Positions 7,567-64,000 of a stretch of DNA of 64,000 bases are shown piece by piece; within the stretch, counting starts at the first letter, position 1, and the number at the start of each line of letters is the position of its first letter. The translations under genes were made by a program, and so were the position numbers. The notes under the pieces were generated by a model. The model saw nothing but the letters and a program-made list of their open reading frames with translations, did not search any database and was not told the DNA's origin. The DNA is taken from NCBI GenBank assembly GCA_032691205.1, contig GCA_032691205.1_4541.1. One strand, 5' to 3'. The DNA comes from a phage.

Positions 7567-8052
7567 ATGTTTCAAGTAAATGTCAATGTGCATAATAGTT
7601 ACTCTGATTGTGAAACGTGTGGCTATAATTCATCTAATGTTATTCGTATTAGTGGCGATTTAGGAGAAGCTTCTTTTGGAGAAGAAGCAAGTTGCTTTAG
7701 TGGTATGGATGCAGAATGGAATGATATTGCACATTGGTTAGTGAGCAAACTAAAAGAAAAAGAGAAACCATTTCCTACTCTGCTTGATCGTTCTCTTGTG
7801 GAAGATGCAGGTAAAGCATATGCAGACTATGCGTATGCAGACGGGAAATATTTGGAAGATGATAAGGCTAACCATTTGCTTTATGTTTATTATGAAGCTG
7901 AATCTGCCTACGATAATTATTACAGCATGTCTAACATCCTACGTCTGTTTGCAGAGTTTGATATTTATTTCGAAGTAGAATTTTCAGAAGATGATGTTTA
8001 TGAATATGATTCTTATGATCCATTTGAGGAGGAAGAATGCCAAGACGAGTGA
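7567..8052 (+). CDS. acidic hypothetical protein (161 aa)
   Basis: ORF track; RBS AGGAGGG. Confidence 0.55.
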   Translation: MFQVNVNVHNSYSDCETCGYNSSNVIRISGDLGEASFGEEASCFSGMDAEWNDIAHWLVSKLKEKEKPFPTLLDRSLVEDAGKAYADYAYADGKYLEDDKANHLLYVYYEAESAYDNYYSMSNILRLFAEFDIYFEVEFSEDDVYEYDSYDPFEEEECQDE

Positions 8053-8852
8053 TTTTTGTAAGTGGCGCAGGACTATCTGTGGATAGCGGTATCCCAGCTT
8101 TTAGAACAGATACTTCTTCAGGGGAGGCGTTATGGTCTTCTTATAATCTTTCTGAAGTCTGTGACATTTTCAACTTCCGTGACGGGTATCAGCAAGAACA
8201 AGGTATTCTTGATGCTATGGGCGGTTTAGATGCGGAAGGATATAACCTCTACCGTAAAACTCACGACTTTTACAATAAACGTCGCGCGGAATTAGAGAAA
8301 GTTGACCCGAATCCGGCACATCTTCAGATTGGGGAATGGTTCAAAAAACATGGTGCAGAAAAGATTATTAACATCACTACTAACGTTGATGACCTCCTTG
8401 AACGAGCAGGAGTAGATAGGGAAGAAGTGCTACATGTGCATGGTTTTCTTCCTGAAATTACTTTTCAAAGAAAAGCTGGACAACCTACAATTGTAAAAGA
8501 TGTTGGTTATCAAGCCATAGATGTAGATGACTACCATTATGTAAAACCTAATGTAATCTTCTTTGGGGAAGCTGCTCCACTTTACACAGATATGTATCAT
8601 ATTTTTGATACACTGACGGCTCAAGATATGGTTATCGTTGTAGGCTGCTCTAACCAAGTAATCAACTTCAACTGGGAACTCTTCCCTGCCCTGAATATTG
8701 GGGTTAAGATGGTTGTAGTTAACCCAGGTTTGAATTTTGTAGAACAAACTCTCTACGAAGAACGTGGAGTGCTTGTCTACCGAGAGAAAGCAGGAACAGT
8801 CTTCAGTGATGAAGGCTTTATCAAAATGGTTGAAGACCATTTAAACAAATAA
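8037..8852 (+). CDS. SIR2-family (sirtuin-like) protein lacking zinc ribbon
   Basis: Motifs GAGLSVDSGIPAFR, TTNVDDL..HVHG, IFFGE, VVGCS; no Cys pairs. Confidence 0.75.
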   Translation: MPRRVIFVSGAGLSVDSGIPAFRTDTSSGEALWSSYNLSEVCDIFNFRDGYQQEQGILDAMGGLDAEGYNLYRKTHDFYNKRRAELEKVDPNPAHLQIGEWFKKHGAEKIINITTNVDDLLERAGVDREEVLHVHGFLPEITFQRKAGQPTIVKDVGYQAIDVDDYHYVKPNVIFFGEAAPLYTDMYHIFDTLTAQDMVIVVGCSNQVINFNWELFPALNIGVKMVVVNPGLNFVEQTLYEERGVLVYREKAGTVFSDEGFIKMVEDHLNK

Positions 8853-8860
8853 ACCACTCA

Positions 8861-8883
8861 AGGGGCTTCGGCCCCTTTCTTAT
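8861..8883 (+). terminator. rho-independent terminator (weak T tract)
   Basis: aggggcttcggcccct hairpin then ttctt. Confidence 0.45.
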
Positions 8884-8895
8884 TAGGAGAACAAA

Positions 8896-9168
8896 ATGAC
8901 TGAAGAAATCCGTGATTACTACCTTGCACATTACGTTTACTACTTTGCTAATGCTACACAAAAAGGGGAAGGTAATCTTTACTTGGCAACAGGGCATGGA
9001 ACAGGTGTTAGGAAATCAAATATTGATAATGCCTTGGCTCAAGTGGCTGCTGGGCTAGAAGATAAACTTCAAATACCTGTAGTTGTAGTGATGCAAAACA
9101 TAAGTTACCTAGCAAGTTGTACTGAAACCGAATTTAACGCGTCTGAAACGCAATCTAACGAAGAATAA
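8896..9168 (+). CDS. hypothetical protein (90 aa)
   Basis: ORF track; RBS AGGAGA. Confidence 0.55.
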   Translation: MTEEIRDYYLAHYVYYFANATQKGEGNLYLATGHGTGVRKSNIDNALAQVAAGLEDKLQIPVVVVMQNISYLASCTETEFNASETQSNEE

Positions 9169-12513: not shown

Positions 12514-12571
12514 TTGACTTTTTCAAAAAAATATGGTACCCTAAACATATGTTTACGAGCGATAGCGAGTA
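12514..12571 (+). promoter_or_regulatory. conserved promoter-leader element, copy A
   Basis: TTGACT N17 (TG)TACCCT then 14 nt then GAGCGATAGCGAGTA; near-identical to copy at 48479. Confidence 0.45.
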
Positions 12572-12672
12572 GTAGATTTCTATATAATAATGTTTCATGT
12601 TACTCACGATAGTGAGGTATGAAACGTAAGTGAAGGTAGATAAACTATGATCATCTATCTACCATCTATTAA

Positions 12673-12882
12673 TCAGTATAGATCCAATGTTAGACTAACA
12701 GTTATCCAACAAACAATAACAGTCCATATAACAAGTAATGATCTACAAACTACATCCCATTCAAATACATTGTATGTTAACCATTCTCCCATCACAACAC
12801 AAGAACCTAACCAACATCCAACAATAACTATAATCCAATAAAAGAATCCTACAGTAGAGTATATAGCAAAAGCTTTTAACAT
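12673..12882 (-). CDS. small hydrophobic membrane protein (69 aa)
   Basis: ORF track; strong RBS GGAGGAAAG; hydrophobic translation. Confidence 0.5.
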   Translation of the reverse strand: MLKAFAIYSTVGFFYWIIVIVGCWLGSCVVMGEWLTYNVFEWDVVCRSLLVIWTVIVCWITVSLTLDLY

Positions 12883-13295
12883 CTTTCCTCCAGAAGTTGT
12901 TCAACAGTTTGACGAGTATGATTGTCCCAGTAAACCTTAGTGAAGTCAAGAGTCCCTTGTTCGTTTCTCTTAGTTTCGAAGAAGTATCCGCCTTCTCTTT
13001 CTACTCTGTCTCTAATGTGCTCTATAAGGTGCTTTTTACAAGATGCTGATAAACAATAGTCATACTCCCCACGAAGCAATGCTATAGCTGCAAGCCTGTT
13101 ATCACCAACTTGAGATATTGTCCAAGAAAGCATACTACCTTTTATACCTAAAGGTGTTTGTCGAATGGAATATCCACCATGCCGACTGATAGAAATTATG
13201 GCAAGTGGTTCTCCTGTTAGGGATCTTCCTAATGCACCTTCTGTTGGACTTCCTTCAATAACACGTTTGAAAAAAGCTTTGATCTTACCTAACAT
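12876..13295 (-). CDS. hypothetical protein (139 aa)
   Basis: ORF track. Confidence 0.6.
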   Translation of the reverse strand: MLGKIKAFFKRVIEGSPTEGALGRSLTGEPLAIISISRHGGYSIRQTPLGIKGSMLSWTISQVGDNRLAAIALLRGEYDYCLSASCKKHLIEHIRDRVEREGGYFFETKRNEQGTLDFTKVYWDNHTRQTVEQLLEERC

Positions 13296-57098: not shown

Positions 57099-57971
57099 AT
57101 GAAAGATTTGTACCAAGATGTTTTTTCTTTTTTAGATCGCACTTCAGAAACATACACTAGAGAGAATGCAAACAAACCTTCCCACCTTGTTAACACGCAC
57201 AGGGATCTCTTGGCGGGGATTTTAAGCAAACATATGGCAATGACACAGATACTGCCAAAAAACTTGTCAGAGTGGCATACAGAAGGTTTTGGACATATTC
57301 ACGACTTGGATTATCTGCTCTCTCCTCTTACAAACTGTTGTCTTGTTAATTATCAAGATATGTTAGAGAATGGTTTTAAGATCGGTGCTGCACAGATAGA
57401 AAAACCAAAATCTATTGGAGTAGCTACTACAGTGCTAACTCAAATCATCCAAGCTGTTGCCTCCAGTCAGTATGGAGGTCAGACGTGTGCTCACATTGAT
57501 AAAGGTCTTAGTCCTTATGTTGAAGCCAGTTTCCTTAAAAACATGGAGATAACCAAACGTCGCTACGGTTGTTATGCAAGGAAAGAAGCCCTAGAAATGA
57601 CCGAACAAGATGTATATGACGCTATGCAAACTCTCTTGTATCAGGTTAACACTTTAATGAGTGTTAATGGACAATCTCCTTTTATTACAATCAGTATGGG
57701 TCTGGATACCTCTGTTTTTGGCAGAATGATCACAGCTAACTATCTTAAAGTGCATAGTAACGGTCTAGGCAAAGATCATGTAACGCCTGTATTCCCTAAA
57801 GTTATTTTCTTTTTACAAGAAGGTGTTAACATGAAACCTAGTGATCCTAACTACGACCTTAAGCAACAAGCTTTGGCATGTTGTGCTGATCGTATTTATC
57901 CAGATTTTATTTCTGTTCCTTTGAACAAAGAAGTTACGGGATCAGCAGATGGTACCGTTACGAGTATGGGT
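57099..57971 (+). CDS. nrdD: anaerobic ribonucleoside-triphosphate reductase, exon 1
   Basis: NrdD-like N-terminal translation; exon ends at ...VTSMG (codon ggt ending in T) before the in-frame stop. Confidence 0.8.
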
Positions 57972-58740
57972 AAACTATAACTGCTCATGTAAAATCTGCC
58001 TAAACGGGGGAACTCTCAACGAGACAATCCCGTGCTAAACGTAACAGAACTCCCAACACAGAAGAAGGGGGTACTGATATGAGAAAACAAATTCGTGATT
58101 TTGAAGGGTATGAAATTGACGAGCTTGGAAATGTTTATTGTACCAGGTATAAGGATGAAAGAATCCTTCGCTCGTGGGAAGAAATAAACACAGGATACCA
58201 ACTTGTCAGAATACGTAAAAACAAGAAAACTGTTTGCTTTCGGGTGCACAGACTTGTAGCTGAAGCGTTTTTACCCAATCCAGACAATTTACCTTATGTG
58301 AAGCATAAAGGTGACAATAGGAAAGACAACAGTGTATACAATCTTGAGTGGGGATCTTGTCCAGACAACACGCAAGAGGGTTACGATAATAACTGTTATG
58401 CTTTCTATACAAGGTGTCACAGTGTAAAAGCTACTCATAAGGCTACTGGTGAAGTTTTTTACTTTAAAAGTCTGAGATGTTGTGCTGACGCTTTAGGGTT
58501 GGACAGAAAAAGAATATCTGCAATCTTAAAGCGAGGAGCACCAAATAATTATGATTATGAGTTCTGTTACGAAATGCCTAACGACTAGCTGTGATGAATG
58601 TAGCAGCGTAGGGTGTAAGCCTATGACACCCCAAATGGTAGACATGCTTTAAGCATGAAGATATAGTCTGATCTGCATGGTGACATGCAGCAGCACGTAA
58701 TGGTGCGGGAGCGGCCTTGCGAGCCACTTTGAACATAATG
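57972..58740 (+). mobile_element. group I intron in nrdD (boundaries inferred)
   Basis: Splits the conserved ...TSMG/CRSFL... junction; ends in G; contains an HNH endonuclease ORF. Confidence 0.6.
58079..58588 (+). CDS. intron-encoded HNH homing endonuclease
   Basis: YEIDELGNVY (NUMOD4-like) and HRLVAEAF..VKHKGDNRKDN..NLEW (HNH_3-like). Confidence 0.8.
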   Translation: MRKQIRDFEGYEIDELGNVYCTRYKDERILRSWEEINTGYQLVRIRKNKKTVCFRVHRLVAEAFLPNPDNLPYVKHKGDNRKDNSVYNLEWGSCPDNTQEGYDNNCYAFYTRCHSVKATHKATGEVFYFKSLRCCADALGLDRKRISAILKRGAPNNYDYEFCYEMPND

Positions 58741-59682
58741 TGTAGAAGTTTCTTGTCGTACTATGCCACCGAACAAGGAGAAAAATATGATGGACGATTC
58801 AACCTTGGAGTAGTTTCTATCAACTTGCCTCTGATTGCTGCGGAAGCGAGAAGTAAAGGAGAATCTTTCACCGATCTTCTTAATAAACATATGGAGATAG
58901 CCTACGATGCTCACATGTTACGTGTAAACCGTATCAGACATACCAAAGCATCGGAAAACCCTATTCTTTTCATGGAAGGGGCTTTAGCGCGTTTAAATGC
59001 CAACGATGAAATTGGTGCTTTGTTTGAAGGTGGTTATGCTTCTATTAGTATTGGTTATGTAGGTCTTGCCGAAGCTTTGGAAATCCTTTATCCAGAGGAA
59101 AAAGATAAAAAGGAACTAGGTAAAAACATTCTGCAACATATGAAAGATGTGTGTGCTGTGTTTAAAGAACGATCTAAGTTGGCATTTAGTCTTTATGGAA
59201 CTCCAGCAGAATCCTTGTGCTATAAATTTGCAACAGCTTTAAATGAAAAATATCCAGGTCTGGTAGAAAGAGACTATCTTACTAATTCTTTTCATCAACC
59301 TGTAGGGTTGGTAACAAATCCTTTTGAAAAATGGGATTATGAAGCAGGTTTTGCACAGATTAGCAATGGTGGTAACATAAGTTATGTCGAAACACCAAAC
59401 TTAAAGAATAACTTAGAAGCTTTGGAGACTTTAGTAGACTACGCTTATGAACATATTCACTATTTTGGTATTAATCAGCCCGTGGATCAATGCTTTAAGT
59501 GTGGTTTTCATGGAGAATTTAAGGCAACGGCTAAAGGGTTTGAGTGTCCTGATTGTGGCAACCATGAAGAAGAAACTATTTCTGTAGTTAGACGTGTATC
59601 AGGGTATCTTTCTGCCCCTAATTCACGGCCTTATAACAAAGGTAAAATGCAGGAAGTTTTGCAAAGGGAGAAACATCTTTGA
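58741..59682 (+). CDS. nrdD: anaerobic ribonucleoside-triphosphate reductase, exon 2
   Basis: C-terminal Cys cluster CFKCGFHG..CPDCG and glycyl-radical motif RVSGYL. Confidence 0.8.
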   Translation, partial: CRSFLSYYATEQGEKYDGRFNLGVVSINLPLIAAEARSKGESFTDLLNKHMEIAYDAHMLRVNRIRHTKASENPILFMEGALARLNANDEIGALFEGGYASISIGYVGLAEALEILYPEEKDKKELGKNILQHMKDVCAVFKERSKLAFSLYGTPAESLCYKFATALNEKYPGLVERDYLTNSFHQPVGLVTNPFEKWDYEAGFAQISNGGNISYVETPNLKNNLEALETLVDYAYEHIHYFGINQPVDQCFKCGFHGEFKATAKGFECPDCGNHEEETISVVRRVSGYLSAPNSRPYNKGKMQEVLQREKHL

Positions 59683-60149
59683 ATTTTGCAGGATATGAAC
59701 CTGTAGATCTTATTAATGGTGAGGGAGTTAGGTGCTCCCTCTGGGTTAGTGGTTGTAGCCACGGTTGTCGTGGCTGTTTTAACCAGAAAGCCTGGTCTTA
59801 TTCTTATGGGAAACCGTTCACTAACGAAAATGTAGAGCAAGTTTTAAAAGATTTGTCAAGACCATTTGTAAAAGGTTTAACAATTTTAGGAGGAGAACCA
59901 TTAGATCCGCAGAATATTTACAATGTTAAAAACCTTATAGAAAAGGTTAGAGACGTTTATGGGTCAAGCAAAGATATAATGGTGTATACAGGATATACTT
60001 TTGAGGAAGTGCCTTTGTATATTAAAAATCTTGTTGACATTATTGTAGACGGAAAGTATGAAATAAACAATCCAACCACAAAACCTTTCAGAGGGTCAGA
60101 TAATCAAAGATTATGGACCAAAACGGCAAGTGGTTGGCAATCAGATTAA
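59679..60149 (+). CDS. nrdG: anaerobic RNR activating protein (radical SAM)
   Basis: CSLWVSGCSHGCRGC motif; immediately downstream of nrdD. Confidence 0.8.
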   Translation: MNFAGYEPVDLINGEGVRCSLWVSGCSHGCRGCFNQKAWSYSYGKPFTNENVEQVLKDLSRPFVKGLTILGGEPLDPQNIYNVKNLIEKVRDVYGSSKDIMVYTGYTFEEVPLYIKNLVDIIVDGKYEINNPTTKPFRGSDNQRLWTKTASGWQSD

Positions 60150-60162
60150 CTTAGGAGGTTTC

Positions 60163-60354
60163 ATGGTTACATATTTTGCTGTAGGAGATAGAGTAGGGAC
60201 GGCAGGAGAACTTTTGAAGAACAGTGATCGGGACGTTAAGGACATTCTTGCAACCCTTGCGGATATTTTACAAAGAAAAGAGTTGCTTTCTGATCGAGAT
60301 GTTGCTAAATTACTTGATATCGGAGGAGATGAACTTCAAAGACTTCCATTTTAA
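60163..60354 (+). CDS. hypothetical protein (63 aa)
   Basis: Track ORF trimmed to ATG 60163 after AGGAGG. Confidence 0.45.
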   Translation: MVTYFAVGDRVGTAGELLKNSDRDVKDILATLADILQRKELLSDRDVAKLLDIGGDELQRLPF

Positions 60355-60369
60355 GTGAGGAGATAAGTA

Positions 60370-60975
60370 ATGCAACATAGTGTAGTAGTCAATATGCCGA
60401 ATAGTGGGGATAAATCTTTTGGTGTCCCTGCTAAAAAAGTGTGGAAAGCCCATTTTCATCTTACTTTATCTAACGTTAGTTCTGAAGAGTTGATGAAAGC
60501 AGCTAAGATTATTGGTGCCAAATGCACAACAATTGATTTACATCGGGATACAAAGTCTCAACGTGATCGTATGTTAACAAAGTATCAAAGCGATCTCGAC
60601 ACTACTTTAATGTTGCAGTGTGTAGAAAAACTTGAGAATGCAGGTTTCAATGTTGTTCGTTACAAACTGGAACGAATGTTTAAACATGTTGCCTGTGTTC
60701 TTTTCATGGATCTAAGTAAAGAAAATTATGGAGAAGTTCACATTAAGACTTCAGCAAGTGATCCCGAAGTAGAAACAAACTTCTTCCGTATTTCTTCTAA
60801 TGCTGAAGAAATTGATTACCGATTTTATAATGCTCGCTTATATTCCGCAGAAGATAAGTTGCGTTTCAATGAAGCGTATGATATGCTCTTGAACAGTGGG
60901 ATACAGATAAAAGGCTACCACATAGAACAAGTTGTGGTAGACAGTAACTTAAATCTTGATGCGTGGTGGGCCTAG
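60370..60975 (+). CDS. hypothetical protein (201 aa); one HxTx motif
   Basis: RBS GAGGAG; FHLTL resembles a 2H-phosphoesterase motif but no clear second copy. Confidence 0.55.
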   Translation: MQHSVVVNMPNSGDKSFGVPAKKVWKAHFHLTLSNVSSEELMKAAKIIGAKCTTIDLHRDTKSQRDRMLTKYQSDLDTTLMLQCVEKLENAGFNVVRYKLERMFKHVACVLFMDLSKENYGEVHIKTSASDPEVETNFFRISSNAEEIDYRFYNARLYSAEDKLRFNEAYDMLLNSGIQIKGYHIEQVVVDSNLNLDAWWA

Positions 60976-60976
60976 T

Positions 60977-61633
60977 ATGACAATAAAACATATTTCTTTT
61001 GATGTATGGAATACTCTTATTTCTGCCAATCAAAACTATGCAGATGCACGTACGCACACTATTGCTACATATGGTAGAATGTCTGAACGTGCGGCAAAAG
61101 AAGCATATAAAGATGCCAAAGAAATTATGGATAATGCTGCACTAAATGGGTGTGCAGAAGGTGTAGCATATGCATGGAATATGTTGGGAAGAAAGATAGG
61201 TTTAACCCCTGTAGAATCTGCACAAATGCGTTTTGAGTGTGAGCAATGGTTTCTTAAATTTCCTCCACATATCGCTTTAGATTTGCCAGTTTGTTTGCTA
61301 TACTTGTCTGGTAAATATGATCTTAGTATTAAAAGCAATACTAATTTTATATCTGGGGATATTTTGCGTCGTGCTTGTATGTTCGACAGTTGGAATTGTT
61401 TTGAATTTATGCATTTTTCAGACGAACATCTGTTATGTAAACCAGATCCTAGATTCTTTGTTAGGACCGCCACATATTCAAGCATTCCTTTGAAGGCTGA
61501 AGAGATTTTACATGTTGGGGACAGCGAAGAATTTGATGGTAAATGTGTTGACATAGGGATTAACTTCTGTCATATTAAGAACCCTAACGATTTACTAGAG
61601 AAACTTAAAAGAGGAGAAATTGTAAATGCGTAA
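60977..61633 (+). CDS. HAD-like hydrolase with non-canonical motif I
   Basis: FDVWNTL (second Asp replaced by Trp), KPDP, GDS. Confidence 0.55.
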   Translation: MTIKHISFDVWNTLISANQNYADARTHTIATYGRMSERAAKEAYKDAKEIMDNAALNGCAEGVAYAWNMLGRKIGLTPVESAQMRFECEQWFLKFPPHIALDLPVCLLYLSGKYDLSIKSNTNFISGDILRRACMFDSWNCFEFMHFSDEHLLCKPDPRFFVRTATYSSIPLKAEEILHVGDSEEFDGKCVDIGINFCHIKNPNDLLEKLKRGEIVNA

Positions 61634-62453
61634 TCAAACTCAAATTTTTGCAAATAAATTTGATGACCTGGAAACTGCTACTTTTGATATCAAAGACTAT
61701 TCAAAATTGAAATTTGGTTGTAACCAAGCTGCGCGTCGTATGGGTAAAGAATTGGCACTTCAGTTTTTTGCTCAAGTGGCAATGAAACATATTGGGGAAC
61801 AATTTGTTATCATCCCTTCTCCTTATAACCATGTGCACAATGCTGCAACAATGATGACAGATCATTTTATTAATTACTTTAATATGTTGCAAGCACAATA
61901 TGATCAAGGTCGTTCAGCAGAACTGGATATTATTCATCGTAAAGTTAGCTATATCAACGATTATGGTTTCTTGGATAAAGCTAGTCGTAAGAAACTTATT
62001 GATGGGGATACATTCTACTGCAACAAAGAATTCTGGGGTGATAAGAAGCTTGTGTTCATTGATGATGTAAATATCACCGGAACTCATGAAGACAAACTGA
62101 TTGAGATTCTTGATGAAAATCAAGTTAAAAATGATGTTTACTTCTTGTATTTTGCAAAATATGAAGGTAATCAAGCAGATACTGAAGCTAAACTGAATTT
62201 TAACTACATCAATACACCAGAAGCGTTTGTTAAAATGATTAATGAAGAACGTGATGCACAGTGTCTTGTTCGTCCTATTAAGTATCTTATGGGCCAAAAT
62301 CACGAAGACTTCAAAATCATTCTTAGCCAATTGCCACACTACTATGTAGAGCAACTTTTCTTCGGATGTTTGGGAGAAGGTTACAACCGAATTTCAAAGT
62401 ATGCTGAAAACTTTGAATTCTTGGATCGTTACACAAAACAACACATTCTGTAA
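61626..62453 (+). CDS. type I phosphoribosyltransferase-fold protein (putative)
   Basis: KKLVFIDDVNITGTHEDKL resembles the PRPP-binding loop. Confidence 0.55.
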   Translation: MRNQTQIFANKFDDLETATFDIKDYSKLKFGCNQAARRMGKELALQFFAQVAMKHIGEQFVIIPSPYNHVHNAATMMTDHFINYFNMLQAQYDQGRSAELDIIHRKVSYINDYGFLDKASRKKLIDGDTFYCNKEFWGDKKLVFIDDVNITGTHEDKLIEILDENQVKNDVYFLYFAKYEGNQADTEAKLNFNYINTPEAFVKMINEERDAQCLVRPIKYLMGQNHEDFKIILSQLPHYYVEQLFFGCLGEGYNRISKYAENFEFLDRYTKQHIL

Positions 62454-62466
62454 TAAGGAGCTAAAA

Positions 62467-62940
62467 ATGCTTAAAATGAAAACAGGTAATCTTATTGATG
62501 CCGCTAAAGCAGGTGAAGTAACTGTTATTGCTCATTGTTGCAATTGTATGTGTAATATGGGAGCAGGAATTGCTCCGCAAATTAAACGAGCATTCCCTTA
62601 TGCATATGCGGCAGATTTAGACACAATGGCTGGTGATCAAAGTAAGTTAGGTTCTTTTAGTTTAGGGGTGCCAGACGAACAATCAGACCCTTTGGTATAT
62701 AATCTATACGGGCAATACCGTTACGGATACAATGCTAAAGGTCGTCAGTTGGACTATGATGCACTTTACGATGCACTAATAGCTATGGCTAATGATTTGC
62801 TTCTCCGTGACCAAAAATGTAAGATAGGTTTACCTATGATTGGAGCGGGACATGCCGGAGGTAATTGGGCTATCATCCAAGTGATGATTGAAGAAACTTT
62901 AGTAAAAACAGGTCACGATGTGACTATTTATAAACTTTAA
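62467..62940 (+). CDS. macro domain protein (ADP-ribose binding/processing)
   Basis: Start ATG 62467 after AAGGAG; VIAHCCNCMCNMGAGIA and GLPMIGAGHAGG. Confidence 0.7.
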   Translation: MLKMKTGNLIDAAKAGEVTVIAHCCNCMCNMGAGIAPQIKRAFPYAYAADLDTMAGDQSKLGSFSLGVPDEQSDPLVYNLYGQYRYGYNAKGRQLDYDALYDALIAMANDLLLRDQKCKIGLPMIGAGHAGGNWAIIQVMIEETLVKTGHDVTIYKL

Positions 62941-62952
62941 GAGGAGATTAGT

Positions 62953-63174
62953 ATGGGTGTTTTTGCAGGTATTGTTGCAGTGGTAAGCTTTTTTGTTATT
63001 GCTTTTATGCTTAGTTTGATTCCAGCTTGGTTACTGTTGCTGGCTTACAACTATGTTGCTGAAGTTATGGGTCATGCAGATATCACTGTCCCAGTAACCT
63101 TCTGGACCGTGGTTTGTGTTTCGTTTATTTTGGCGGTATTACGAGGAATCTTTTCCTCTCATTCAACAAAATAA
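62953..63174 (+). CDS. small membrane protein (73 aa, two TM)
   Basis: ORF track; RBS AAGAGGAG. Confidence 0.55.
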   Translation: MGVFAGIVAVVSFFVIAFMLSLIPAWLLLLAYNYVAEVMGHADITVPVTFWTVVCVSFILAVLRGIFSSHSTK

Positions 63175-63177
63175 GTG

Positions 63178-63236
63178 TTGACATAGTTCTTAAAAAGAGT
63201 AAGATATATCACATGAAGCGGGGAATAGTTCCCCGC
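63178..63236 (+). promoter_or_regulatory. PeSL-like cassette on plus strand: TTGACA N16 TAAGAT + stem-loop gcggggaatagttccccgc
   Basis: Hairpin 63218-63236 is the same family as the minus-strand cassettes (reverse complement of gcgggaactattcccgc type). Confidence 0.55.
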
Positions 63237-63252
63237 AAAGAGAGGAGAAAAG

Positions 63253-64000
63253 AATGCAACTCGGTTTCCCAATTATTGATGTAGTTGTTTTAGTTGGTAT
63301 TTTAGCATTGTCTATTGGTATCGATTTCTTTGGTCATAAAGAGAATAAAGAAATTGGAATTAAATCTGCTTTGCTTTGGTCTGTTTTTTGGATTGCTTTA
63401 GCTTTAGGGTATTACGCATTCATTTGGGTAGAACATGGTAAAGAGTTTGCCGCGCTTTTCCTAAGTGGCTATGTGTTGGAAAAGAGTCTTTCTGTAGATA
63501 ACCTAATGGTGTTCATGGCAATTTTTGCAAGCTTTGGAATTAAGAGCACACATCTCCAACATAAGATTCTACTTTGGGGGATTGCAGGAGCCATTGTCTT
63601 CCGAGGTATTTTTGTTGCAGCAGGGACCGCTTTGTTTAACCTTCATTGGTCGGTCCAAGTGTTGTTCGGTTTGATTGTAGCTTGGTCTGCCGTGGCTATC
63701 ATCAAAGGTGGTGACGAAGAAGAGGATATTGATTACTCTAAACATTGGGCTGTTCGTTTAGTAGGTAAAGTTCTGCCTGTGCACAATGCACTGGATGGTG
63801 AAAAGTTCATCACCATTAAGAATGGTATTAAATATGCAACTCCTGCTCTTCTTTGTGTGTTTGTTATTGAGCTTACAGATATTGTCTTCTCTTTTGATTC
63901 AGTTCCGGCTGTGATCGGTGTGACACAAGAACCTCTGCTAGTTTATTCTGCAATGCTGATGGCTGTTCTTGGTTTACGTGCACTTTTCTTTGTGTTAAGT
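63253..64000 (+). CDS. TerC-family integral membrane protein (partial, runs off window end)
   Basis: Own translation from ATG 63253 (RBS AGAGGAGAA): multiple TM helices; not in ORF track because no stop. Confidence 0.6.

Follow-up and report, generated by a model that had tools for sequence, protein, structure and literature searches.

A four-gene run in a Phapecoctavirus genome read as three accessory modules: a HAD and PRTase_3 pair near Ter genes, an AdfM-like macrodomain protein and an AbiEi-like protein

The phage DNA considered here (contig GCA_032691205.1_4541.1; the window, that is the whole stretch analysed, is 64,000 nucleotides long) carries four close-packed genes after nrdG, which encode a protein of 201 residues, a HAD-like hydrolase, a phosphoribosyltransferase (PRTase) of the PRTase_3 family and a macrodomain protein. 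We favour, with a probability of roughly 0.6, the view that the run is mosaic in nature, three mutually independent accessory modules lying side by side, namely the HAD and PRTase_3 pair, the macrodomain protein and the first protein. The run belongs to the early part of a Phapecoctavirus genome, its 'nucleotide metabolism and accessory' region. All three modules are of kinds that have already been described, the HAD-PRTase_3 pair with its Ter cluster computationally and AdfM, the kind to which we assign the macrodomain protein, experimentally. A sequence-only reading of the same DNA had joined the four products into a single pathway of nucleotide, nicotinamide adenine dinucleotide (NAD) and ADP-ribose conversion; this finds no support, the four genes having different phyletic patterns, and since they do not travel together one common pathway is unlikely.

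The division into modules follows from the family memberships, gene linkages and phyletic patterns that we observe. By tblastn, PRTase_3 was found in 157 phage records, and in every one of the 27 distinct loci that were fetched and confirmed by a scripted scan the HAD gene lies immediately upstream of it, whether in phages of E. coli (phi92-like phages included), Klebsiella, Xanthomonas, Rhizobium, Caulobacter and Brevundimonas, in metagenomic phage contigs or on rhizobial plasmids. The macrodomain family occurs in 2,930 phage records, as against the 157 with PRTase, and nearly all of them are devoid of PRTase; its hosts include T4-like, rV5-like, Felix O1-like and Pseudomonas phages, and only in Stephanstirmvirinae does a macro gene follow the HAD-PRTase_3 pair. 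The first gene is present in Phapecoctavirus-like phages and absent from their phi92-like relatives, it stands alone in 110 Rheinheimera phage records, and in two more distant phages that have both the first gene and the pair the two are not adjacent. Because only the HAD and PRTase_3 genes are always found together, we regard them as the conserved unit, and the first and macro genes as mere neighbours.

The HAD and PRTase_3 pair and its Ter neighbours

The folds proposed for the pair from sequence alone were borne out. The HAD protein scores below the Pfam HAD cut-off (19.7 bits against 26.4), although several NCBIfam HAD-IA models match it (best E=1e-8), as does the Protein Data Bank (PDB) entry 2om6, which also carries 'FDVWNTL', and all four catalytic motifs can be identified (D9, S120, K155 and G181-D182...D187). 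The unusual DxW motif I that had been pointed out is real. Motif I of the window protein reads D-V-W-N-T and departs at Asp+2 from the canonical DxDx(T/V), motifs II-IV being intact, and this is a family trait, as the 27 distinct HADs adjoining PRTase_3 share the pattern D-x-(W/Y)-(N/Q/G)-T, with tryptophan at Asp+2 in 26 of them and tyrosine in the remaining one. Its partner belongs to family PF15610 (PRTase_3), has type I PRTases as structural neighbours and possesses a loop for binding phosphoribosyl pyrophosphate (PRPP) of the expected pattern (hydrophobic, D-D, x-x-T-G-x-T) on a Rossmann-like core, which upholds the type I assignment. It is classed with the ComF-like type I enzymes, and none of the NAMPT/NAPRT-type or Prs-like enzymes of known phage NAD+ pathways matched it, so that its casting as an NAD-pathway enzyme has to be given up. 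Compared with the ComF/ComFC competence proteins, which have the PRTase fold, the phage PRTase is only 8% identical and has its own N-terminal strand and helices together with an 80-residue C-terminal helical bundle. ComF carries an N-terminal zinc-finger region; no match to this region turned up in the phage PRTase, for which it was not specifically tested. We predict that PRTase_3 carries out the PRPP-dependent step, and HAD the phosphatase step, of a Ter-type biosynthetic pair.

Ter genes lie within 10 kb of the pair in all Stephanstirmvirinae loci, including this genome, and in six other lineages. Two unrelated metagenomic phages show the order TerC, x, TerD, x, vWA-TerF, HAD, PRTase_3, and in four further lineages TelA, vWA-TerF or TerD is no more than 10 kb away from the pair. 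In the window, TerC, which opens the Ter cluster of the phage, starts 80 nt after a gene for a 73-residue membrane protein, and its 248 residues within the window are 100% identical to TerC of Escherichia phage ESCO13, whose annotation places SprT-like, TelA, vWA-TerF-like and TerD genes within the 8 kb that follow TerC. Pfam E-values in this Ter cluster are 3e-40 for TerC, 3e-33 for TelA, 2e-37 for vWA-TerF and 3e-28 for TerD. With ESCO13 TerD as query, the phage records that carry TerD proved to have a genus make-up nearly identical to that of the records carrying PRTase_3, and in the jumbo phages of Caulobacter and Brevundimonas both genes are present, about 30 kb apart. The Ter linkage of the pair is frequent, not obligate. 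Outside phages, a search of 100,044 species genomes for the motifs of the phage-clade PRTase returned only a contaminating phage contig (a contig of a metagenome-assembled genome that is the phage itself), and the named bacterial relatives of this PRTase_3 clade in a separate protein search were all rhizobial; the clade is almost wholly phage-borne.

The Ter biosynthetic module, as described by Anantharaman, Iyer and Aravind (2012), always includes a PRTase and a HAD, its enzymes numbering either two or five, and is predicted to yield a nucleoside-like compound; Iyer et al. (2021) note phage copies, for instance in Acinetobacter phage vB_AbaM_ME3 and 'certain other related smaller tailed phages'. 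The gene arrangement had not been recognised when it was read from sequence alone, and its PRTase and HAD beside Ter genes are in fact a published module. The phage pair resembles that module in having a PRTase of the Ter-associated family PF15610 with a HAD directly beside it, and TerC, TelA, vWA-TerF and TerD in the same gene block. It differs from the fuller Ter modules in consisting of two enzymes, ATP-grasp, TIM-barrel and second PRTase all being absent, and TerB was not seen either; the HAD with its invariant aromatic residue at Asp+2, the nearly exclusive phage carriage of the clade and the occurrence of the pair without Ter genes as well set it further apart. The family PF15610 owes its very definition to Ter neighbourhoods. 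A literature search found no published experimental study of the HAD-PRTase_3 pair, and nothing on PF15610.

On the Ter-linked reading, the PRTase would couple PRPP with some base or amine into a riboside 5'-phosphate, from which the HAD would then strip the phosphate to leave a nucleoside-like small molecule. This product would act together with the phage's own TerC, TelA, vWA-TerF and TerD, encoded just downstream, and the phage Ter proteins could work at the cell membrane during infection, for example in the exclusion of rival phages or in buffering envelope or ion stress.

Another account, which we consider rather unlikely, takes the pair for an autonomous mobile cassette without a functional tie to Ter, its adjacency to Ter genes here being coincidental; possible roles would be nucleotide or base salvage, the making of a modified nucleoside for nucleic-acid modification, or a PRPP drain in host takeover. 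It can appeal to the ten loci without nearby Ter genes, to Rhizobium phages that have the pair and no TerD hit, and to plasmids of Rhizobium and Sinorhizobium and a prophage-like stretch of chromosome where the pair stands alone, as well as to the ribonucleotide reductase genes beside the pair here and in metagenomic locus L007 and the RNA ligase/tRNA-repair genes near it in Xanthomonas phage XaC1 and metagenomic locus L008. Coincidence fits poorly with a tight linkage to TerC, TerD and vWA-TerF that recurs independently in phage lineages unrelated to each other, or with the genome-level co-occurrence with TerD in the jumbo phages, where 30 kb separate the genes, and we retain the Ter-linked reading of the pair.

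It is worth describing some of these settings. On the large plasmids of Sinorhizobium and Rhizobium (loci L030 and L031) HAD-PRTase_3 forms a lone two-gene cassette, and on a rhizobial chromosome (L036) the pair lies in a prophage-like region with YdaS, GcrA, HTH and transposase genes; no Ter gene is annotated nearby in either setting. RNA ligase genes occur a few kb upstream of the pair in phage XaC1 (L004, 3518-4780) and in a T4-like metagenomic contig (L008, 2443-3648), and another lies close to the AbiEi-like/AbiEii gene pair of Deinococcus discussed below (L049, 4092-4838, minus strand). Such proximity may be a hint of RNA or tRNA-end repair, or a coincidence.

The first protein and the macrodomain protein

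The first protein gave no match by sequence in Pfam, NCBIfam or PDB. An exhaustive profile search gathered a family of 260 cluster representatives, phage-like in all contexts examined, and none of the ten clusters checked had an informative name; a narrower alignment, used in the viral contig scan, led to five loci. Its AlphaFold2 model (predicted local distance difference test score, pLDDT, of 84) is made of two tandem beta-alpha-beta-beta-alpha-beta repeats and resembles only generic ferredoxin-like or ACT-like folds. The HxTx motif singled out in the sequence does exist, its HxT being part of an invariant H28-x-H30-x-T32. The check for a 2H phosphoesterase that had been proposed came out negative: the two HxT/S motifs on a bilobed 2H fold that characterise this group (LigT/ThpR, CPDase, Acb1) are not present. 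In 50 diverse members the positions H28, H30, T32, T70, R97, K99, E101, E122, H124, S142, N144, F152, E186, D191, D197 and W200 do not vary. As the invariant polar residues alternate along strands (HxHxT, RxKxE, ExHxK, FxNxR), the pattern points to one polar face of the sheet that may bind or cleave a charged ligand.

A link to toxin systems comes from the PADLOC AbiEi models PDLC02277/02279, which match over the full length in 50 of 50 diverse family members. A homologue on a Deinococcus plasmid (hhalign 97%, E=5e-11) overlaps by 4 nt the gene of an AbiEii/AbiGii nucleotidyltransferase (PF08843, 4e-13), and a Streptomyces rimosus plasmid has the same layout, the homologue again overlapping the AbiEii start by 4 nt; the phage protein is in this way homologous to proteins encoded directly upstream of AbiEii, at the place of the antitoxin. 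Elsewhere its domain is fused to NUDIX, HD_4, Ham1 and MazG-like domains, which represent four nucleotide pyrophosphohydrolase folds. No cognate AbiEii gene was found in the phage, the neighbouring proteins being without AbiEii match and tblastn with the Deinococcus AbiEii drawing a blank in the window, and the protein is accordingly termed an orphan. Full-length homology to PADLOC AbiEi in a phage copy without toxin recalls AbiE and the 'orphan antitoxin' idea put forward for AdfN and AdfM. Unlike AbiEi, the protein gave no match to the Pfam AbiEi family, nor was a winged-helix region detected in it, and its invariant alternating polar residues point to an enzyme or a ligand binder more than to a repressor. 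At odds clearly short of even, we see in it a nucleotide-directed protein of the orphan antitoxin type, which makes it a candidate for an anti-AbiE factor. It would probably act on nucleotides or on the product of the AbiEii/AbiGii toxin, and may shield the phage from AbiE-type abortive infection. The searchable literature yielded nothing on phage anti-AbiE factors or on the link of this family to AbiEi; the link appears to be unreported and is the most novel lead of this work.

One may wonder whether the first protein is instead a third enzyme that acts on the nucleotide-like product of the pair in Phapecoctavirus, and not an independent anti-AbiE factor. The spacer of 1 nt to the HAD gene and the gene order kept in all Phapecoctavirus-like loci would suit such a role, as would the fusion partners found elsewhere, all of them nucleotide pyrophosphohydrolases. 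We nevertheless judge it quite improbable, for phi92-like phages have the pair and lack the first gene, the two more distant phages that possess both carry them apart, and in Rheinheimera phages the first gene is alone, while its bacterial homologues pair with AbiEii and not with PRTases. An orphan antitoxin-like protein is the reading that we keep, tentatively, for this gene.

A further homologue deserves mention. In a metagenome phage contig of 110 kb from JGI (L042) a protein of 38% identity is encoded next to Acb1 (anti-CBASS), the two genes overlapping by 8 nt (8001-9021), and a NADAR (AdfN-like) gene lies 4 kb downstream of them (12545-12976). The region looks like a small neighbourhood of counter-defence genes.

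As for the fourth gene, the macro fold named from sequence is upheld. The protein passes the Pfam PF01661 cut-off narrowly (22.8 bits against 22, E=1e-4), it matches PDB macrodomains down to E=1e-12, the best being SCO6735, BT1257, T. aquaticus DarG and TARG1, and the DarG models of NCBIfam and PADLOC match at 4.5e-9 and 1.6e-10. To T4 Tk.4/AdfM it is 37% identical (E=2e-21). AdfM was described in 2025-2026, Tk.4 of T4 having recently received this name: transposon insertions in tk.4 were depleted on a DarTG2 host, and a clean tk.4 knockout sensitised T4 to the ADP-ribosylating DarTG2. A study unrelated to that on T4 found that PhiKZ AdfM takes DarT2-made ADP-ribose off DNA. Because of its identity to Tk.4, the best reading of the window protein, made by analogy, is an AdfM-type orphan antitoxin, a predicted ADP-ribosyl glycohydrolase countering DarTG2, which would free thymine in phage DNA of the ADP-ribose attached by DarT2. 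Like T4 Tk.4 and PhiKZ gp104, it consists of one macro domain in about 155 residues, and it keeps the asparagine of the N-x-x-N region, which aligned by phmmer when N22 and K80 of T. aquaticus DarG were looked up. The general idea that this run contributes to counter-defence, voiced from the sequence, thus finds backing in a homologue of Tk.4/AdfM, whose loss exposes T4 to DarTG2, and perhaps extends to the first gene. No literature on a Phapecoctavirus macrodomain was found.

The junction between PRTase_3 and macro genes is variable. In Klebsiella phage FKP3 an HNH endonuclease gene lies between the two (L010, 6117-6770), and metagenomic relatives have about 0.6 kb (L014, 4016-4577) and about 0.9 kb (L015, 9112-10058) of extra DNA there; the junction may be an insertion hot spot. 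Given this variability in relatives, we disfavour a coupling of PRTase_3 and macro genes. In Justusliebigvirus Bas62 (L003, 6833-7567) the macro protein is annotated with 244 residues, its N-terminal extension overlapping the PRTase gene.

Weighing the mosaic

To the idea that the four proteins make up one pathway interconverting PRPP, NAD+ and ADP-ribose against NAD-depleting or ADP-ribosylating immunity we give very little credence: the close packing of the genes, the binding of ADP-ribose by macrodomains and the NAD-salvage genes found close to the pair in two lineages that are not related (a nicotinamide mononucleotide adenylyltransferase/NUDIX gene 250 nt downstream of it in Rhizobium phage TM61, and PnuC-like and AAA_28 genes about 2-3 kb downstream of it in metagenomic locus L007) are outweighed by the differing phyletic patterns, by the HNH gene or extra DNA that splits PRTase from macro in relatives, by the membership of the PRTase in the ComF-like type I family PF15610 without match to NAMPT/NAPRT-type or Prs-like enzymes, and by the direction of the chemistry, since a PRTase followed by a 5'-phosphatase would lead to a riboside, away from NAD+. 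The NAD+-restoring systems offer a useful comparison. NARP1 consists of Adps, a Prs-like ADP-ribose pyrophosphokinase, and Namat, which is NAMPT-like, and NARP2 of NAMPT and NMNAT. The block studied here is like them by analogy only, in that a phage would turn PRPP and ADP-ribose chemistry against immunity; unlike them, it has no homologous component, neither Prs-like kinase nor NAMPT nor NMNAT, and Pfam finds in it only PRTase_3, HAD and Macro.

Several points tell against the mosaic, or against the roles given to its parts, and should be set beside the evidence above. The order of the four genes is kept throughout Phapecoctavirus, for which reason some functional coupling among them is still conceivable, and the biochemical activities of all four proteins are ones that we infer. 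With respect to the pair, 10 of the 16 loci outside Stephanstirmvirinae are without a Ter gene within 10 kb, no TerD was detected in the Rhizobium phages and rhizobial plasmids that carry the pair, and the phiPsa374-like phages of Pseudomonas have TerD without PRTase_3. The general acid at Asp+2 is missing from every one of the 27 PRTase_3-adjacent HADs, and it is consequently not certain that HAD is a simple nucleotidase. For the first protein, the connection to AbiEi depends on the name of a PADLOC model and on two annotated bacterial pairs, most family members are found in phage contigs with no toxin nearby, and a Kitasatospora homologue has no recognisable AbiEii neighbour, its neighbours having given no Pfam hits. 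Finally, in the phmmer alignments 'GQY' of the macro protein stands at the position of DarG K80 and TARG1 K84; unlike in DarG and TARG1, the catalytic lysine is thus not aligned in the Phapecoctavirus protein, whose chemistry may for that reason differ from that of DarG. At the place of 'GQY', SCO6735 has GQH and T4 Tk.4, in its alignment to the window protein, TQF, neither of them having been aligned to DarG directly, and the lysine may fail to align in these two proteins as well; T4 Tk.4 nonetheless protects its phage from DarTG2.

Gene layout, neighbouring features and meaning

The window is a Phapecoctavirus sequence. Over positions 60100-63300 its identity is 99.7% to Escherichia phage ESCO13 and at least 93% to dozens of further Phapecoctavirus genomes (group Stephanstirmvirinae), and at least 80% of this region is present in 71 phage records; this conservation argues that the four open reading frames (ORFs) are genuine, conserved genes. 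They lie on the plus strand after nrdG where the sequence-only reading had placed them, the start of the macro gene excepted, which we corrected (Table 1). Gene boundaries and junctions were taken by direct reading of the sequence. The HAD gene follows the TAG of the first gene after a spacer of 1 nt, and the PRTase gene overlaps the HAD gene by 8 nt (ATGCGTAA). The start of the macro gene given in the table, which sits 3' of an AAGGAG site, is most likely the true one, in preference to that of a longer ORF from 62401, because it is with the very first residue of the short form that the similarity to DarG and T4 Tk.4 sets in.

Table 1. Genes of the run and of its immediate surroundings, in window positions
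Feature	Position	Strand	Basis
Small acidic protein, 63 aa, function unassigned	60163..60354	+	PHROG 17780, full length
AbiEi-like 'orphan' protein, 201 aa (candidate)	60370..60975	+	PADLOC AbiEi models PDLC02277/02279
HAD-IA type phosphoesterase, 218 aa from RefSeq ATG	60977..61633	+	NCBIfam HAD-IA, four catalytic motifs
PRTase_3, ComF-like type I phosphoribosyltransferase, 275 aa, C-terminal helical extension	61626..62453	+	PF15610
Macrodomain protein, 157 aa, TARG1 / DarG / SCO6735 clade	62467..62940	+	PF01661, T4 Tk.4 homology
Two-pass membrane protein, 73 aa	62953..63174	+	PHROG 16065; two hydrophobic segments; synteny
TerC integral membrane protein, cut by window end	63254..64000	+	100% identical to ESCO13 TerC

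The run had also been called operon-like. Its tight packing is real, and as evidence of an operon it counts for little, because the entire stretch from nrdD onward is equally compact; the promoter and terminator scan found no terminator-like site within the four genes, and promoter-like sites in the region were not above shuffled expectation. The region has a single intergenic gap of any size, at 63175-63253; it precedes TerC and contains a promoter-like site, TTGACA-16 nt-TAAGAT at 63178-63205, of a sort that is not above chance here. TerC may have its own transcript start.

On either side of the run the gene order is conserved. The gene of the 63-residue protein keeps its place relative to the module in both Phapecoctavirus and Justusliebigvirus and lies upstream of it in all Stephanstirmvirinae loci, and that of the 73-residue membrane protein is found between the macro gene and TerC in all of them; the latter protein may be an accessory of the Ter membrane part. 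In the phi92-like Justusliebigvirus Bas62 (L003, 3785-4945) a protein of 386 residues is encoded between nrdG and the 63-residue protein, the 201-residue gene is absent and an ORF of 51 residues precedes HAD. The 386-residue protein of Bas62 is without annotation, and a protein of equal length in FKP3 is annotated as 'ATPase'.

Further upstream, nrdD is in two parts, 57099-57980 and 58717-59682 (nrdD region 57099-59682), with an HNH-type ORF at 58079-58588 between them and a sub-threshold Rfam match to a group I intron at 58583-58690 (39.3 bits against a gathering score of 50, E=2e-7). The insert, of about 0.8 kb, is absent in ESCO13, ESCO5 and phAPEC8_ev052 and present in phages nieznany and nepoznato, and it looks like a strain-variable mobile intron with a homing endonuclease. 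Parts of the window outside the run are not colinear with phage nieznany.

A word of caution concerns host names in the databases. Several 'Campylobacter phage' records (A145 and B15; MG065645.1, MG065650.1 and others) have genes that match E. coli Stephanstirmvirinae, TerD of Campylobacter phage B15 being 100% identical to that of ESCO13, and the PRTase of 'Acinetobacter phage vB_AbaM_ABPW7' (OP562383.1) is 99.3% identical to that of the window. The Campylobacter and Acinetobacter labels of these records look doubtful.

Taken further, the findings on the first protein and on the pair allow a bolder reading, unlikely in our estimation. The 201-residue protein would found a mainly phage-borne family of enzymatic orphan antitoxins against nucleotidyltransferase toxins of the AbiEii/AbiGii type, which might, for example, reverse or pre-empt nucleotide addition, its NUDIX, MazG, HD and Ham1 fusions being variants of the same counter-defence, and the riboside made by the pair would switch on the phage Ter apparatus.

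Close packing in a phage genome is not the same as a functional operon, and the pathway that seemed apparent in this run dissolves once the distribution of each gene is traced. What takes its place is a set of leads: the Ter pathway to a 'nucleoside-like metabolite' in a minimal form of two genes, an AdfM-type macrodomain outside T4-like and nucleus-forming phages, and a previously unannotated family through which phages are connected with AbiE-type toxin systems and with four nucleotide-hydrolase folds. This group of phages grows on E. coli K-12, which makes the leads testable. If true, the orphan-antitoxin or the riboside-Ter reading would open a first biochemical way into a system for which, since 2012, genomics has been the sole source of knowledge.

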